A DNA stretch of 64,000 bases from Bacillota bacterium (GCA_022706825.1 JAKJBU010000002.1:932-64931), one strand, 5' to 3'. Positions 15,335 to 51,850 are shown, counted from the stretch's first letter. The notes: generated from the letters alone by a model not told the origin. Numbers and translations: made by a program.

Positions 15335-15508
15335 TATACCGTTTATACCCTCCAAATCGTTTTTAAAATTAACTTATTGTTTTTTTATATTATTTTTATT
15401 ATAATATTCTTGTTGCCAGCATCCGTAAGGAGTTGGACCGGATATAGTTATAAACATTATGTTTTACGACTGGTATCCAAAATATGGAACTAGAGCGGAG
15501 GTATTAAA

Positions 15509-16332: not shown

Positions 16333-16362
16333 TTGTATAGGAAAGTATACTTTCCTATACAA
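16333..16362. promoter_or_regulatory. Perfect 30-bp palindrome TTGTATAGGAAAGTA|TACTTTCCTATACAA (candidate operator)
   Basis: Seen directly. It lies between the terminator and the GC-rich hairpin series that precedes the HerA-like gene. Confidence 0.35.
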
Positions 16363-16510
16363 TGGGGGATGCAAGGGGGTGAAGCCCCCTGCCGATAAAG
16401 GAGGGTGCTCAGGATGCTTGCATCCGTCGAAGGGAACCATAGGGTTCCCTAGCGAAAAAAAGCGTCGCGAGACGCATTTTTTTGAAAATACAGTGAAAGG
16501 AGCGGCATTT

Positions 16511-18092: not shown

Positions 18093-18402
18093 CACAATAG
18101 AAGAATGCGACATATCTGAAGTTTGTGGTCATCCTACATAGCACTGGCCTTATATAACAGCGAGCACTTATTGGCTTTGGGTAACAGAATCGAGTGAAGA
18201 TGCGCAGTAAAATCCGTGGGATTTACGTGAGGTAAATCCAGCACATACTTACACGAGGTAAGGTTTATGTGCGTCAGGATTTTACAAGTATCAAGCTCTG
18301 ATTCTGTCCAAAGCTAATACCGTGCGAGTCGGGATACAAGGCTATTGCTCTGGGAGTATGACTGCAAACTTATAGTTATGTCGCATTATTCTTCTATTGT
18401 GA
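18093..18402. repeat. Rod-like hyper-palindromic repeat element, copy A (about 310 nt)
   Basis: The left arm CACAATAGAAGAATGCGACAT... is the imperfect reverse complement of the right arm ...ATGTCGCATTATTCTTCTATTGTG. The hairpin centre is near 18255. The core 18151-18395 is about 90% identical to 49457-49695. Confidence 0.8.
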
Positions 18403-18450
18403 GACAGGGGAAACATCCCTATGTCCCCAGGAGAAACGTCCCCGTGTCTC
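18401..18450. repeat. GC-rich REP-like palindrome (GGAGAAACGTCCCCGTGTC family); probable terminator for argJ
   Basis: GAGACAGGGG...CCCCGTGTCTC hairpin. It shares the GAAACGTCCCCGTGTC core with copies at 46.9 kb and 50.5 kb and lies directly after the argJ stop on the minus strand. Confidence 0.65.
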
Positions 18451-22853: not shown

Positions 22854-22916
22854 AGGTGCCTTCAAGAATTTTTTGACACAGGTAAATTAATAATATATAA
22901 TATGTTTTATAATTAT

Positions 22917-23158
22917 TCAAGGCTATGATGAGGATTAGTAGAGGGGAAGATTCTGAAAGAGAGGGAAACTCAGCGGCTGAAAGGTTTTCCAAGATTATTT
23001 CCTTTGAACCCGACCTTTGAGCTGCAGGTGAAAAGTCTGCCGCATGCCGGCGTTACAGGCGTCAAGTGGTCACATATTTAATGTATATGCGTTCAATTTG
23101 GGTGGTACCGCGAATAACCTTCGTCCCTTAACAGGGGGGAGGTTTTTTATTTTTTTAA
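22917..23158 (+). promoter_or_regulatory. T-box leader (tRNA-sensing riboswitch), probable proline specifier
   Basis: Stem I elements (TGATGAGGATTAGTAG, AGAGAG...GAAA). T-box sequence AATTTGGGTGGTACCGCG at 23095-23112. Terminator hairpin plus T-run at 23118-23157. Candidate specifier GAA-CCC-G at 23006-23012. proBA lie downstream. Confidence 0.85.
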
Positions 23159-46827: not shown

Positions 46828-46929
46828 AGGACACGGGGACGCGAGGACATGGGGACGTTTCTCCTGTCCCGCTTTCAGCGGGACAGGAGAAACGTCCCCA
46901 TGTCCTCGGAGAAACGTCCCCGTGTCCCC
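46828..46929. repeat. GC-rich REP-like compound palindrome; terminator for gltX
   Basis: Perfect 30-bp stem at 46843-46907 (GAGGACATGGGGACGTTTCTCCTGTCCCGC / 5-nt loop / reverse complement). It is flanked by a further GGACACGGGGACG / CGTCCCCGTGTCC pairing. Confidence 0.8.
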
Positions 46930-47593: not shown

Positions 47594-47631
47594 ATATGGG
47601 GATTTTTGATTGCAGGGAAGGCGGAGTCGGT

Positions 47632-48879
47632 ATGAGAACCATAATGCATATTGATGTGAATTCGGCTTTTTTATCCTGGCAGGCTGTATACAATTTGCAG
47701 AAGGGGGATACCCTTGACCTTAGGGAAATACCTTCGGTAGTGGGAGGCTCCCAGGCTGACCGGAGAGGTATAGTGCTGGCGAAAAGCATATCTGCCAAAA
47801 AGTTCGGAATAACAACCGGGGAGGTGCTGTGGCAGGCCAGGCAGAAGTGCCCCGGGCTTGTAGTGGTACCTCCTGACTATAACCTTTACATGAAATGCAG
47901 CAATATACTGTATGAAACCCTGAAAGAGTATTCTCCCAGATTGCAGAGATTCTCCATAGATGAATTGTTTTTGGATTATACGGGAATGGAACCTCACTTC
48001 GGAGATGCAGTTGCCGCTGCACATTTGATAAAGGAGAGAATCAAAAAGGAATTGGGCTTCACCGTCAATATAGGGATAGGAGCAAATAAGCTTACTGCAA
48101 AGGTTGCAGGAGATTTAAAAAAGCCCGATATGATCCATACTTTGTTTCCTGACGAGATAGAGAGCAAAATGTGGCCGCTGCCCGTAGGCGATTTATTTAT
48201 GGTAGGCAGGCAGACCAGGAAGAAGCTTATGGAAATGAATATAACCACAATAGGAGACTTGGCCAGGGCAGACAAAAAATTCCTGTACGGCAGGCTGAAA
48301 TCCTTCGGCAATCTGATATGGTGCTATGCGAATGGCATTGATGAATCACCGGTACACCAGGGGTATTACCTGCAGATGAAGGGAATCGGCAACAGCACCA
48401 CTATAAAGTTTGACGTAACTGAAAGGCAGATTGCCCACAAGGTATTATTATCCCTGACGGAATCTGTTTCATTAAGGCTCAGGGCTGCCAGATCCTGCTG
48501 CCGGGTAGTATCGGTGGAGATAAGGACAGCGGAGCTTAATTTTTATTCCCATCAAAGAAAGCTTATGGCTCACACCAATATAACGATGGATATATTCGAA
48601 ACCGTAAGGGAACTGTTCGACGAATGCTGGGGAAATGAAAAAATAAGGCATCTGGGGGTAAGAGTGACGGATTTGTGCAGCGACGAGTTTATGCAGGCCT
48701 CAATATTTGACCGGCAGTGCAAATACAAGAAGCAGGCGCTGGACAGTGCCATGGATATTATAAGAGGCAGGTATGGGAATGATTCCGTAATGAGGGCCAT
48801 ATTTGCCGACGGGGAGTTTGCCCCCATGTCCGGAGGGTCAGGGGGAGAAGACTATCCCGTAATGAGCAGCATACTGTGA
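47632..48879 (+). CDS. Y-family (DinB/UmuC-like) translesion DNA polymerase
   Basis: IMHIDVNSAFLSWQA, SIDELFLDYTG, GIGANKLTAKVA, and the little-finger region. It is SOS-box controlled. Confidence 0.85.
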   Translation: MRTIMHIDVNSAFLSWQAVYNLQKGDTLDLREIPSVVGGSQADRRGIVLAKSISAKKFGITTGEVLWQARQKCPGLVVVPPDYNLYMKCSNILYETLKEYSPRLQRFSIDELFLDYTGMEPHFGDAVAAAHLIKERIKKELGFTVNIGIGANKLTAKVAGDLKKPDMIHTLFPDEIESKMWPLPVGDLFMVGRQTRKKLMEMNITTIGDLARADKKFLYGRLKSFGNLIWCYANGIDESPVHQGYYLQMKGIGNSTTIKFDVTERQIAHKVLLSLTESVSLRLRAARSCCRVVSVEIRTAELNFYSHQRKLMAHTNITMDIFETVRELFDECWGNEKIRHLGVRVTDLCSDEFMQASIFDRQCKYKKQALDSAMDIIRGRYGNDSVMRAIFADGEFAPMSGGSGGEDYPVMSSIL

Positions 48880-48886
48880 AAGACAG

Positions 48887-49150
48887 TTAAATCTTATATA
48901 TATACCATCTTGAAGTATCTATTTCAAATCTGAGTTCAAAGGGTTTGATCTGATTGCCGATGCGTGTCTGGCAGGTAAACTTGAGCATCCTGTTGCCGGC
49001 AAACTTGTCAAGCTCTCTTTTTATTACCCGGTCTACTTTTACCGTGATCAACTCCGATCTGTCATCAAGATACCTGAACCTTACAGGTACAGGATTGCCT
49101 TCCAGATCAAAAAGTACTATTGCCTCAACAGGCTTTCTGAGCATCTTCAT
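48887..49150 (-). CDS. Hypothetical 87-aa protein, convergent with the polymerase gene
   Basis: Good RBS GGGGGTG. I recognise no family. Confidence 0.55.
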   Translation of the reverse strand: MKMLRKPVEAIVLFDLEGNPVPVRFRYLDDRSELITVKVDRVIKRELDKFAGNRMLKFTCQTRIGNQIKPFELRFEIDTSRWYIYKI

Positions 49151-49183
49151 TTAGTTCACCCCCTATATGAAATAATTTTCTTA

Positions 49184-49704
49184 TTGTGCAGAATAGAAGA
49201 AAATTGCGCAATATATACAGGTTTGTAAAGTACTCCGACTGTAGGGGAAGTATGTTCTCCTCACCTTCCAAAGCCAGCAAAATCACTGGCGAAGGTCCCA
49301 TCTCTGCGGGCCCGTCTGGTTATTTTGCCTGGAGGTATTCCCGTTCCGGGGTCAGGTGGAAGGTTTCGTCGAAGATATCTTCCCCACGTCGGTATTTGCA
49401 ATTCTTTTATATACAAGCTTTTTCTTACTATGCATCCTGCAGAGCACTATCCTTGTATAACAGCGAGCACTTATTGGCTTTGGGCAACAGAATCGAGAGA
49501 AGATGCGCAGTAAAATCCGTGGGATTTACGTGAGGTAAATCCAGCACATACCAACAGGAGGTTGGGTTTATGTGCGTCAGGATTTTACAAGTATCAAGCT
49601 CTGATTCTGCCCAAAGCTAATACCGTGCGAGTCGGGATACAAGGTTATGCTCTGGAAGTATGACCGCAAACTGATAGCTATGTCGCATTCTTCTTTTTAT
49701 GTGC
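49184..49704. repeat. Rod-like hyper-palindromic repeat element, copy B, with a nested hairpin insertion of about 160-200 nt in its left arm
   Basis: The core 49457-49695 is about 90% identical to 18151-18395. The outer arms GCAGAATAGAAGAAAATTGCGCAAT... / ...ATGTCGCATTCTTCTTTTTATGTGC correspond to those of copy A. The extra segment at about 49227-49432 contains the CCGAC-GGGGAAG...CTTCCCC-GTCGG hairpin (49235-49392). Confidence 0.8.
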
Positions 49705-49815
49705 TTTAATATTAGCATGTTTTTGCCTGTTCAGAAACTTCGCTGTAGCATTGTATAAGTAAATTCTGCCGATTTATCTGGTTAATTCATAAGAATAAAG
49801 GATATTTCTTAGAAT

Positions 49816-49835
49816 ATTATACGAACATATGTTCG
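49816..49835 (-). promoter_or_regulatory. Second LexA box CGAACATATGTTCG abutting a -10 TATAAT on the minus strand
   Basis: The minus strand reads CGAACATATGTTCGTATAATAT, which is 21/22 identical to the polymerase-gene promoter. It points toward repeat copy B and the 87-aa ORF. Confidence 0.7.
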
Positions 49836-49878
49836 AATTAATACATATATTTTAGAAAGCCAACGGTAAAAAAATGTA

Positions 49879-49905
49879 ACCAAACATTCATGTGTACATA
49901 GTATA
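49879..49905 (+). promoter_or_regulatory. sigma-K-type promoter module, copy 1 (AC-16 nt-CATAGTATA)
   Basis: ACCAAACATTCATGTGTACATAGTATA fits the Bacillus sigma-K consensus AC-N16/17-CATAnnnTA. It is one of four related copies. Confidence 0.55.
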
Positions 49906-49954
49906 TAAGTGGAAAGGTGAACAACCTATAATTATCCGGGAGGGGGTTTGAACT

Positions 49955-50224
49955 GTGGCAAGCGGATTTGGAGTGGCCAATCCGGTCACAGCCGCAGGGT
50001 GTGGGGCATCGCCGGCGCCTGTCGGAGGTTTTTTTGGATTCAGCAATGCATGGATTTGGATAATATTGCTTTTGATATTTGTACTTCCACGGCTTGGATT
50101 CAAGGGGTGTACCGGTGCCGGAGGCTTGTTCGGAGGATTTAGCTGGATTTGGATTATTATATTGATAATCTTCCTGGTCCCGGGTATCTTGCCTGGCTTT
50201 CGCCTTGGCGGGTTTGCCATATAA
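49955..50224 (+). CDS. Small Gly-rich hydrophobic protein with an internal duplication (YjcZ-like tiny-TM sporulation protein resemblance)
   Basis: GTG start after RBS GGGAGGGGG. Two repeats of [Gly/Cys-rich - GG(F/L)FG(F/G)FS - WIWIIxLLIFxxP]. Confidence 0.6.
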   Translation: MASGFGVANPVTAAGCGASPAPVGGFFGFSNAWIWIILLLIFVLPRLGFKGCTGAGGLFGGFSWIWIIILIIFLVPGILPGFRLGGFAI

Positions 50225-50257
50225 GATACAAAAATTATAATGAGGGGAGGTGAAAAT

Positions 50258-50491
50258 ATGGCAAACGGATTAGGCTCAACCGGATGTGGATGCGGCGCTC
50301 CCACAGCAGTAAGTCCGATTATGGACTTATGCAAAAACAATGGATTCCTCTTACTGCTTCTGTTGTTTGTGCTCTTAGCATCATGCACAACTTTGGGCAG
50401 AGAGAAAAACTTTATCTTTATCATAGTACTTGCTATAATCGCTTTTGGCGGTTTTGGAAGAACCTTCGGATTCGGTGGTAATGATTATTAA
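50258..50491 (+). CDS. Small Cys/Gly-rich protein with two hydrophobic segments (paralog a)
   Basis: ATG follows GGGGAGGTG. MANGLGSTGCGCGAP...GFLLLLLLFVLLASC...FIFIIVLAIIAFGGFGRTFGF. About 85% identical to the product of 50764-51000. Confidence 0.65.
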   Translation: MANGLGSTGCGCGAPTAVSPIMDLCKNNGFLLLLLLFVLLASCTTLGREKNFIFIIVLAIIAFGGFGRTFGFGGNDY

Positions 50492-50502
50492 ACTGTAACG
50501 AC

Positions 50503-50570
50503 AGGGGGACATGGGGACGGGGACACGCGAAACGTCCCCGTGTCCCCGTCCCCGTGTCCCGGATTTTTTG
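50503..50570 (+). terminator. REP-like GC-rich hairpin plus T-run (terminator), same family as 18.4 kb and 46.9 kb
   Basis: GGGACATGGGGACGGGGACACGCGAAACGTCCCCGTGTCCCCGTCCCCGTGTCCC followed by GGATTTTTTG. Confidence 0.75.
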
Positions 50571-50575
50571 TTGTC

Positions 50576-50602
50576 ACCAAATTAATGCATGTACATATTA
50601 TG
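50576..50602 (+). promoter_or_regulatory. sigma-K-type promoter module, copy 2 (orphan; no ORF follows)
   Basis: ACCAAATTAATGCATGTACATATTATG, nearly identical to copy 4. It is followed by about 100 nt of hairpin-forming non-coding sequence and then copy 3. Confidence 0.45.
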
Positions 50603-50714
50603 GAATTGGGAAAGGGTGTCAACCATACAGTCCTGACCCAGATGCCATAACTCACCTCAAGCATGGAAGGGGGCTTTAATGCCCGCTTTCATGCTTTAAG
50701 CGGGAAACTTGTCA

Positions 50715-50741
50715 CCAAATATACGCATGTACATAAAATAG
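50715..50741 (+). promoter_or_regulatory. sigma-K-type promoter module, copy 3 (AC-16 nt-CATAAAATA)
   Basis: ACCAAATATACGCATGTACATAAAATA, 23 nt upstream of ATG 50764 with RBS AAAGGGGGTG. Confidence 0.55.
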
Positions 50742-50763
50742 AATTGAGAAAGGGGGTGACATC

Positions 50764-51000
50764 ATGGCAAACGGATTAGGCTCAACCGGATGCGGATGCG
50801 GTGCTCCTGCGTCAGTAAGTCCGATCTTAGATAAGTGCAAGGGTAACGGATTCCTCTTGCTGCTTCTGTTGTTTGTGCTCTTAGCATCATGTACAACCTT
50901 GGGCAGGGAGAAAAACTTCTTCTTCATAATAATACTTGCAATAATCGCTTTCGGCGGTTTTGGAAGAACTTTCGGTTTTAACAATGGCACAGCTATATAA
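50764..51000 (+). CDS. Small Cys/Gly-rich protein with two hydrophobic segments (paralog b)
   Basis: MANGLGSTGCGCGAPASVSPILDKCKGNGFLLLLLLFVLLASC...; paralog of the product of 50258-50491. Confidence 0.65.
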   Translation: MANGLGSTGCGCGAPASVSPILDKCKGNGFLLLLLLFVLLASCTTLGREKNFFFIIILAIIAFGGFGRTFGFNNGTAI

Positions 51001-51030
51001 CGAGATTTGTTCTTGAAAGGAGGTGTAAAT

Positions 51031-51348
51031 ATGGTTGACGGAGTAGCAGGCAATGCTTTTGGAGGCGGAAACTTTGATCTTCTTCAGGATAGCATTGGAG
51101 AGACTGTTACAATATTTACTACAAGCGGAGGCCTGTCAGGATGCGGCTTTACGGGAGTAGTACTGGCTGTAAATCCATGTTTTGTCAGGCTTATTACCCA
51201 TATAGGAGCGGCTCCGAGCTGTGCATTGGGCAGCTGCTGCGGAGTACCCGACGGAGGTTACGGCAGCTATGGCAATGTGAGAACGGTAGGATCGGTAACG
51301 GATATTCCCCTTGACAGGATTGCCGCAGTTGTACGTAATGCCATTTAG
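51031..51348 (+). CDS. 105-aa protein with a conserved beta-rich core and a Cys/Gly-rich central insert (paralog a)
   Basis: ATG follows AAAGGAGGTG. IGETVTIFTTSGGLSGCGFTGVVLAVNPCFVRLITHIG...VGSVTDIPLDRIAAVV; paralog of the product of 51496-51828. Confidence 0.65.
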   Translation: MVDGVAGNAFGGGNFDLLQDSIGETVTIFTTSGGLSGCGFTGVVLAVNPCFVRLITHIGAAPSCALGSCCGVPDGGYGSYGNVRTVGSVTDIPLDRIAAVVRNAI

Positions 51349-51359
51349 CAAGCTGTATC

Positions 51360-51387
51360 GAAGGGCAGGGTAAGTAACCTGTCCTTC
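51360..51387 (+). terminator. Hairpin GAAGGGCAGG / CCTGTCCTTC
   Basis: 10-bp stem with one mismatch. A T-rich stretch lies 20 nt downstream. It is related to the hairpin at 51851. Confidence 0.45.
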
Positions 51388-51422
51388 CTATTACTCTGAA
51401 CTTTTTGTTTATACAGGCTGTC

Positions 51423-51449
51423 ACCAAATAAATGCATGTACATATTATG
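51423..51449 (+). promoter_or_regulatory. sigma-K-type promoter module, copy 4
   Basis: ACCAAATAAATGCATGTACATATTATG. The leader then forms AATTGGG...CCCAATT before RBS AAGGGGGTG. Confidence 0.5.
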
Positions 51450-51495
51450 GAATTGGGAAAGTCAGAAACCCAATTATGTGAAAGGGGGTGTAACA

Positions 51496-51828
51496 ATGGC
51501 AAATGGAATTGGTTATGGCGGAAATTTTAACGGCAATTTCTTTGACTTACTCTCAGACCTTATAGGAGAGACTGTAACAATATTCACTACAAGCGGAGGC
51601 CAGTCAGGCTGCGGTTTTACAGGTGTAATACTTGCTGTAAACCAATGCTTCGTCAGGCTTGTAACCCACATAGGGCCGGCTCCGGGATGTGCTCTTGGCA
51701 ATGCATGTCATAGTCCATGCTGTCCTACAATCGGCTGCAGCGGAGGCTTTAGCAATGTGCGTTCGGTAGGCTCTGTAACGGATATACCTCTTGACAGGAT
51801 TGTTGCGGTAGTAAGCAATGCTGTATAA
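51496..51828 (+). CDS. 110-aa protein with a conserved beta-rich core and a Cys-rich central insert (paralog b)
   Basis: IGETVTIFTTSGGQSGCGFTGVILAVNQCFVRLVTHIG...CHSPCCPTIGCSGG...VGSVTDIPLDRIVAVV. Confidence 0.65.
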   Translation: MANGIGYGGNFNGNFFDLLSDLIGETVTIFTTSGGQSGCGFTGVILAVNQCFVRLVTHIGPAPGCALGNACHSPCCPTIGCSGGFSNVRSVGSVTDIPLDRIVAVVSNAV

Positions 51829-51850
51829 ATTTCTTATGCAGTGAATAAAT

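Follow-up and report, generated by a model that had tools for sequence, protein, structure and literature searches.

A candidate family of non-coding REPIN/MITE-like hairpin elements in Clostridia, probably moving as folded single strands

The window, that is, the whole stretch of DNA that was analysed, comprises 64,000 nt from a Bacillota bacterium (GCA_022706825.1, JAKJBU010000002.1:932-64931). It contains two copies, A and B, of a common imperfect palindrome of ~300 nt, which display 94% identity over 216 ungapped nt (Table 1). Copy A is directly preceded by a terminator-like hairpin and, in an exact-protein look-up, was present in 10 of the 10 contigs that encode an identical ArgJ protein. 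The limits of copy B were set by comparison with strains without the element and are essentially those of the initial annotation (49184-49704). Among species-representative genomes, no relative of the window ArgJ exceeds 61% identity (best 80 of at least 599 candidates); the search for an empty copy A site through ArgJ relatives was useless, the best relative being only 61% identical. Three other segments of the window were matched by Rfam at the gathering score: a Clostridiales-2 RNA (16357-16437), which overlaps the start of the HerA-like ORF as called mechanically, a T-box leader (22916-23131) and a pan motif (15413-15501).

Copy B lies beside an ORF of 87 amino acids. The LexA box CGAACATATGTTCG and the TATAAT motif that follows it, both read directly from the sequence, constitute a canonical Gram-positive LexA-box promoter, that of this ORF. 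In the alleles without copy B (empty alleles), the promoter is ~160 nt from the ATG of the ORF, which indicates that copy B has inserted into the leader of the 87-aa gene; it may alter the expression of this gene in the strains that carry it. The initial annotation had assigned a minus-strand SOS promoter to a transcript of the element. The LexA box and the TATAAT motif are real, but they belong to the 87-aa gene and cannot explain the ~100 other copies described below, and for the family at large the SOS context is incidental. The same LexA box is common to two divergent promoter-like sites (49786-49836), TTCATA-18-TAGAAT on the + strand, facing an array of small genes, and TATAAT on the - strand, directed towards the 87-aa ORF. 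This array (49875-51830) consists of small paralogous genes of 78-130 aa, Gly/Cys-rich, with a hydrophobic stretch and no Pfam family. A 43-nt promoter-like block (TGTCACCAAAT...CATGTACATA...) is repeated before each gene, and tandem duplication has occurred several times in the array (repeat families D1-D5).

Table 1. Coordinates of the elements, their parts and associated features. Positions are those of the window unless a recovered sequence (L number) is given.
Feature	Position	Strand	Basis or remark
Copy A, simple full-length F1 element	18093-18401	+	between convergent HerA-like ATPase and argJ genes
Copy A apical stem-loop CTTAC-ACGAG-GTAAG	18248-18262	+	1/56 distinct copies
Copy B, composite: F3 module, short F2-like fragment, F1 module; one pair of inverted termini	49186-49704	+	
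Copy B left terminus (GTGCAGAATAGAAGAAAATTGCGC...GGTTTGTAAAGTACTCC), pairs with right terminus	49186-49236	+	MFE structure; alignment with L009, L012, L182-L184
F3 inner rod CCGAC...GTCGG, the 'nested hairpin' of the initial annotation	49234-49392	+	z -3.9
F2 right-arm-like fragment (TATACAAGCT...TATG) at the F3/F1 joint	49411-49432	+	
F1 module of copy B, consensus positions 42-313, own left terminus missing	49433-49703	+	94% identity to consensus
Copy B apical stem-loop CCAAC-AGGAG-GTTGG, family majority form	49551-49565	+	49/56 distinct copies
Copy B right tip CTTTTTATGTGC	49693-49704	+	empty allele has CTATTATAGTGC at this position
87-aa ORF, no Pfam family, downstream of copy B, convergent with Pol IV (47596-48879)	48887-49150	-	
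LexA (Cheo) box CGAACATATGTTCG (49822-49835), then TATAAT (49816-49821)	49816-49835	-	read directly from sequence
Short palindromic repeat GGACAYGGGGACGTTTCTCCTGTCCC	18401-18449, 46842-46927, 50520-50545		
Head-to-tail joints of element pairs	L006:209-281, L017:665-737, L037:6480-6552, L067:3525-3575		
IS30-like (HTH_38 + rve)	L037:1539-2739		~15-bp direct repeats
ISLre2-like (UPF0236)	L053:3081-4618		9-bp duplication

The predicted folding of copies A and B is far beyond chance. For copy A, the + strand has a computed energy of -153.1 kcal/mol (z -13.2, 0/100 shuffles) and the complementary strand of -125.5 kcal/mol. The tip forks: two small hairpins are borne on a stem of 9 bp (GTAAAATCC/GGATTTTAC), and the second of them ends in the apex stem CTTAC/GTAAG. 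Copy B, folded over 531 nt, reaches -203.9 kcal/mol (z -8.8), and the outermost 25 nt of both sides pair together. The extra segment of copy B (~230 nt; 49208-49445) folds alone at -80.2 kcal/mol (z -3.9) and is itself a rod, with the pairs CCGAC/GTCGG, GGGGAAG/CTTCCCC, CCTTCC/GGAAGG and GCAAAAT/ATTTTGC, as first described.

The apex stems of the two copies (CTTAC/GTAAG in A, CCAAC/GTTGG in B) differ by two compensated base pairs while the surrounding GCACATA/TATGTGC stem is unchanged, exactly as had been noted. The T/C differences reported in opposite arms (GGGTAAC versus GGGCAAC, CTGTCC versus CTGCCC) also exist, but these positions are not partners of each other, and columns 100 and 226 of the family alignment rule out a compensating pair. 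In this alignment, the T of copy A sits in a conserved bulge of 3 nt; the C of copy B either disrupts an A-U pair of the family register or moves the bulge by one register.

Approximately 100 copies of the element were recovered at ~44 distinct intergenic loci (defined by flank clustering) from three related Clostridia MAGs and from digester and sludge metagenomes, which places the family in a small clade of uncultured digester Clostridia; the recovered sequences are designated by L numbers. A 23-mer taken from the apex detected 40 loci, restricted to three MAGs (Bacillota AMR_MDS_4744, Clostridia Go_SlDig_bin_83 and Lutisporaceae SBF912LR0HQ0046), and many of the copies found in this way sit at contig ends. 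A 20-mer from the apex detected 60 metagenome loci (anaerobic digesters, activated sludge), of which 58 are real; the other two (L087 and L093) are chance matches inside a high-GC gene and were left out of the count. Since the copies were fished with these oligomers, the invariance of the corresponding 20-23 columns is an ascertainment artefact. The elements measure ~300-520 nt (~300-315 nt for the simple form F1), and every copy is located between ORFs, often a few nt from a stop or a start. No match was obtained in phage and plasmid collections (blastn, distant mode), and viral contigs gave 0 hits with the apex pattern and 0 hits with the F2 pattern. The terminus pattern gave 3 hits in viral contigs, all in one phage coding region and hence due to chance. 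A 16-aa ORF after the AGGAGG loop (MCVRILQVSSSDSVQS) was considered and rejected, the SD-like loop being lost in several sub-families. None of the window flanks recurs in the three MAGs that carry the repeat, whereas the F1 copies of the window show 93-94% identity to those of the MAGs. This leaves incomplete MAGs as one explanation and, as the other, an element that is much more conserved, or was exchanged more recently, than genes of the host.

It had been proposed from copies A and B that the hairpin, and not the primary sequence, is kept, and this was borne out when covariation was tested on many copies. In the 56 distinct F1 copies, 99.2% of the stem cells pair, and 9 pairs display double-sided changes against 3.0 expected from column shuffles (exceeded in 0/500); the F1 copies are related, so that the stem cells are not independent events. 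The apex stem reads CCAAC/GTTGG in 49 copies, CCTAC/GTAGG in 7 and CTTAC/GTAAG in copy A only. The form CCTAC/GTAGG is intermediate between the majority form and that of copy A, which therefore represents the end of a two-step compensated series. Three to four further compensated pairs were observed in the forked tip of L202, a sequence fished by its terminus and 87% identical.

Within the 215 inner nt, 22 G-U, 10 A-C and 13 other mismatches make up the distinct variant types; the excess of G-U over A-C is thus modest by event count (22 versus 10). All the variants of this region present in at least 7 copies keep the pairing of the + strand, and the pair-breaking variants are found in at most 3 copies. 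The cores fold better on the + strand in 56 cases out of 56, by 14.5 kcal/mol on average. Neither the G-U bias nor the strand bias was detected in the outer arms of F1 or in F2, and the strand bias was therefore rejected as a family-wide rule: it is true for the F1 core only. Between the orthologous copies L010 and L005 the divergence is 8%, a value equal to that of their flanks, with a compensated apex pair among the differences. The copies thus diverge like their flanks, with no sign of a host-level constraint in place. Conversion between copies probably contributes to the variation. The maintenance of pairing is as expected if copying is limited to elements whose stem is intact on one strand.

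The family is modular. At least three unrelated rod-shaped cores with forked tips, named F1, F2 and F3, have in common inverted termini of ~40 nt that read TGCACAATAGAAGAAT-AATGCGAC-RYATCTGAAGTTTG... F2 was found by scanning for the end sequence, and an example is the rod of ~300 nt with a forked tip at L085:4385-4692. Over 106 distinct ends, the information content is highest at GAAGAAT-AATGCGAC and declines progressively towards the outside, without a sharp limit; terminal inverted repeats are thus present and their outer limit is blurred. The termini are AT-rich, the tips of many copies read TG...CA, and an 11-nt palindrome ATGCGACGCAT is found in some ends only.

The extra DNA of copy B had been interpreted as an insert, possibly an element nested within an element. 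It corresponds instead to the F3 module of this family, whose other copies display 92-94% identity (L009, L012, L082, L092, L181-L184) or 85% identity (L205). F3 was not seen as a stand-alone repeat in any of its 11 occurrences, in each of which it is joined to F1, to F2 or to another rod. The F3-F1 composite of copy B also occurs, with different flanks, in L047 (97.6% identity over 501 nt). The long form suggested in the initial annotation is thus real and recurs as a unit, but nothing indicates that the long and short forms belong to a dedicated RNA gene. The F3/F1 joint with its F2-like fragment is also found in L032, L036 and L013, and other fusions with an exact joint are common to several loci, for example F2 position ~273 to F1 position ~41. 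F3 is combined with F2 in L181-L184, and one orthologous locus contains F1 alone in L030 (MAG) and F1+F2 in L068 (metagenome contig). From these alignments, copy B is best described as a composite of family modules within one pair of termini, and not as a foreign element inside an RNA.

In one sub-family (L044, L056, L075, L074, L051, L062, L212, L098 and L022), the asymmetric core is flipped with respect to the arms, and this 'flip/flop' organization is the pattern expected from recombination between inverted arms. An extra hairpin of 50 nt was observed exactly in the apical loop of F1 (CCAACA|...|GGAGGTTGG) at L019:3560-3615, and also in L042 and L096; a similar extra hairpin is located inside an F2 copy (L094:880-1010). 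BOX and BIME are mosaics of short modules (~40-60 nt) in varied combinations and orientations. Set beside them by description, the elements studied here likewise use a small set of modules in varied combinations and orientations, but the BOX and BIME modules are not, unlike F1-F3, rods of 200-300 nt with shared inverted termini.

Comparison of filled and empty sites gives access to the mobile unit. An identical 87-aa protein to that beside copy B is encoded on many contigs, including two without copy B (L186 and L187). At this site the intergenic gap measures 298 nt in L186 and L187 against 805 nt in the filled allele, and the sequences are otherwise co-linear. Both alleles of the site occur in digester metagenomes (ERZ2648042 and ERZ1756056 against 3300010357). 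On the + strand, the empty site reads ...TTTCCTTATT-CTATTATAGTGC-TTTAATATT and the filled site ...TTTTCTTATT-G[TGCAGAATAGAAG...CTTCTTTTTATGTGC]-TTTAATATT. A second pair is composed of L002, which is empty (...CTGCTTATCAGAAGAAT^TATGCGAATTCC), and L067, which is filled by 540 nt (...CTGCTTAATAGAAGAAT[GATACGTCG...CTTCTTCTCCT]TATGCGAATTCC). No fixed target duplication was detected at these two filled/empty pairs, both of which involve composites and which together constitute the junction evidence (microhomology of 0-3 nt), and no flanking direct repeats were seen at the 106 ends. Both empty alleles hold a sequence resembling the terminus, with matches at 15/21 and 20/24 positions. The two empty sites therefore point to a duplication-free insertion beside a terminus-like half-site, although the 'empty' alleles could be excision products instead of naive targets.

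Sibling copies, defined as copies at different loci with cores at least 97% identical, provided 11 independent pairs. In these pairs, the shared sequence runs ~6 nt beyond ATGCGAC and ~12 nt beyond GTCGCAT, an asymmetry of ~6 nt, which suggests that the copied unit is the hairpin with a short tail added on one side, the corresponding outer piece on the opposite side being supplied by the target site. When copy B is compared with its sibling L047, the right tips diverge abruptly over the last ~25 nt, and the right tip of copy B is probably target-derived. The end that bears the extra tip differs between the simple F1 siblings and the composite B.

We consider, with a probability of about 0.6, that these repeats represent a new family of non-coding, non-autonomous REPIN/MITE-like hairpin elements, probably moving as folded single strands. 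The repeat behaves like a small parasitic mobile DNA and not like a dedicated RNA gene. The mobile unit would be a folded single strand, namely a hairpin with a short tail, and an enzyme encoded elsewhere in the genome would cut and paste this hairpin, as in REPIN/RAYT and IS200/IS605-type (HUH tyrosine) transposition. Only the copies whose stem still pairs would be picked up and copied. Changes that keep the stem would consequently spread, whether as G-U/G-T wobbles or as double changes of the series CCAAC/GTTGG, CCTAC/GTAGG, CTTAC/GTAAG, and pair-breaking changes would remain as singletons in dead copies. Exchange between copies, by ectopic conversion or by inversion between arms, would add to the spread of stem-keeping changes. 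The family is new, and the kind of element (REPIN/MITE-like) is already known.

The closest documented parallel is the REPIN/RAYT system. The replicative unit of REPINs is a hairpin of two inverted conserved ends in which compensatory changes are common, and their excision products are a hairpin with a single-strand tail and ~6 bp of conserved sequence left behind (PMC3116915). Like F1, REPINs are non-coding, extragenic and multicopy in a narrow host clade, and form a long hairpin from two inverted conserved ends around a variable spacer, with compensated changes. No target duplication is made, and the unit is asymmetric and leaves conserved bases, as deduced here from two junction pairs and 11 sibling pairs. 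However, REPINs measure ~70-110 nt, whereas the element described here is three times longer (~300 nt). REPIN ends are G+C-rich REP palindromes with a GTAG-type 5' tetranucleotide; the element has neither, and its termini are AT-rich. It also differs by its forked tip, by its several unrelated cores and fused composites, and by the fact that no RAYT gene was found in the ~1.1 Mb of fetched DNA.

Two other single-strand systems share some of these features. The PATEs of IS200/IS605 resemble the element in that no duplication is made, the target contributes a conserved motif to one flank only, DNA hairpins are required and one strand is used specifically. Their hairpins are nevertheless small, subterminal, in direct orientation and on the same strand, with a left-flank target of 4-5 nt, whereas the element is one palindrome with inverted ends, its conserved flank piece measures 8-24 nt, and the target-like piece, of 12-24 nt, resembles the terminus itself. 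The integron attC sites and the CTX-phi attP hairpin are, by analogy only, comparable as imperfect palindromes folded as single strands, with a hybrid boundary, a self-like target and no duplication. The attC sites measure 57-141 nt, lie beside cassette ORFs with an IntI integrase in the vicinity and bear R''/L''-L'/R' boxes, in contrast with the ~300 nt of the element, its housekeeping flanks and its lack of cassette ORFs; no integrase was detected among the 6 window ORFs scanned against Pfam, and no Xer-type site was recognised.

A more detailed proposal, possible although rather doubtful as it stands, is that of giant REPIN-like single-strand transposons. A 300-nt rod with a short tail would be excised and re-inserted beside a half-copy of its own terminus, by a probably single-copy HUH/RAYT-like or tyrosine recombinase of a Lutisporaceae-related clade, with modules freely swapped and concatenated. 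In ~1.1 Mb of fetched DNA, no HUH/Y1-like ORF was found, tblastn with two approximate Y1 queries gave nothing below E = 0.4, and no pairs of termini spaced by more than 600 nt were detected. The IS30-like and ISLre2-like sequences (Table 1) were examined as parent IS candidates and rejected, their ends being unrelated and their direct repeats clear. Both are polymorphic between related contigs, where they are seen as indels.

The main rival is the classical MITE, that is, an internally deleted IS moved as double-stranded DNA through cut-and-paste by a DDE transposase that binds the TIRs, the rod being a by-product; we judge it unlikely. Bacterial MITEs that fold end to end measure less than 500 bp, occupy AT-rich intergenic DNA, possess TIRs and predicted stem-loops of high stability, and insert in promoters or after terminators; the element, with ~300 bp, an AT-rich intergenic setting, TIRs and many copies, fits this textbook description (PMC10969869). 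The TG...CA tips of many copies agree with such an origin, and one pair of termini with different cores is typical of families served by one transposase. Correia/NEMIS, RUP, ERIC and QMITE2 of Coxiella are similar to F1 in size, sites, TIRs, stem-loops and insertion places, but these elements have target duplications (TA or 7-9 bp) and a DDE-type IS origin. A DDE-dependent MITE fails the duplication test here, both at the two filled/empty pairs and among the 106 ends, and ~1.1 Mb of fetched DNA yielded no parent IS with such ends. Moreover, the conservation of the termini fades gradually without a sharp end, the unit shared by siblings is asymmetric, and the whole length is kept paired, not the ends alone, with a wobble bias on one strand.

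A multicopy structured ncRNA gene or cis-regulatory RNA (an sRNA, a processing/stability element or an SOS leader structure), as envisaged in the initial annotation, is improbable. Such an RNA would agree with the significance of the compensated changes, with the preference of wobble variants and folding energy for one strand of the F1 core in 56/56 copies, with the apex loop, which resembles an SD on the + strand (AGGAGG) and an anti-SD on the - strand, and with the position of copy B in the leader of an SOS-type gene. However, the orientation relative to the flanking genes is random, with no bias in 31 placements (9 convergent, 9 divergent and 13 tandem), and promoter- or terminator-like sites inside the element do not exceed the shuffle expectation. 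The Rfam search over the whole window gave no match at the gathering score for either copy, and only noise up to E = 10 over 49100-49900. Only the termini are common to the three unrelated cores, F2 has no matching strand bias, and copies are fused, flipped or interrupted by other repeats. In addition, copy B is present or absent among strains and hence dispensable in sister strains, and orthologous copies drift as fast as the sequences that flank them.

Finally, a neutral palindrome, whose arms would be kept complementary by DNA processes alone (template switching, arm-to-arm or copy-to-copy conversion) with no selection on the fold, would account for the inverted-core sub-family through arm recombination, for the compensated apex difference between L010 and L005 through conversion from another copy, and for cores up to 99.5% identical at different loci with arms that differ more, but it is very improbable, since arm-to-arm conversion would erase the conserved bulges, the asymmetric forked apex and the G-T wobbles fixed in all copies, strand-symmetric DNA repair does not predict high-frequency variants that are wobble-type on one strand only, and the dispersal to ~44 loci and the asymmetric unit are left unexplained.

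For annotation, a puzzling "structured RNA" candidate becomes a repeat family, and one that breaks the assemblies of digester Clostridia, as indicated by the many copies at contig ends. Its members insert in promoters and leaders, in the present case the leader of a gene under SOS control that neighbours Pol IV. With three cores on one set of termini, and with frequent composites and flipped forms, the family is an informative case of hairpin-dependent propagation, in which long rods offer many pairs for reading selection, and a good natural system for hairpin-dependent transposition. If the mobilising enzyme is RAYT-like or another single-strand recombinase, REPIN-type biology would be extended to Gram-positive anaerobes with a much larger cargo. 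If the reading as giant REPIN-like elements is true, these would represent a distinct and experimentally tractable class of hairpin-guided DNA insertion.

Two further types of repeated sequence were observed around the elements. Some elements are arranged in head-to-tail pairs separated by a conserved quasi-palindromic spacer of 21 nt (GGGCACTTGGCGCGTGGCTTG and variants), and this recurring tandem joint may be a copied end-to-end junction. A second, short palindromic repeat, GGACAYGGGGACGTTTCTCCTGTCCC, is REP-like and often organized in 2-3 tandem or inverted units. It is also present in the flanks of L008, L031 and L040 and inside F1 in L011 and L032, and it often adjoins F1 copies or has inserted into F1. 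Immediately after gltX, at 46842-46908, this short repeat makes up a perfect inverted repeat of 32 nt.
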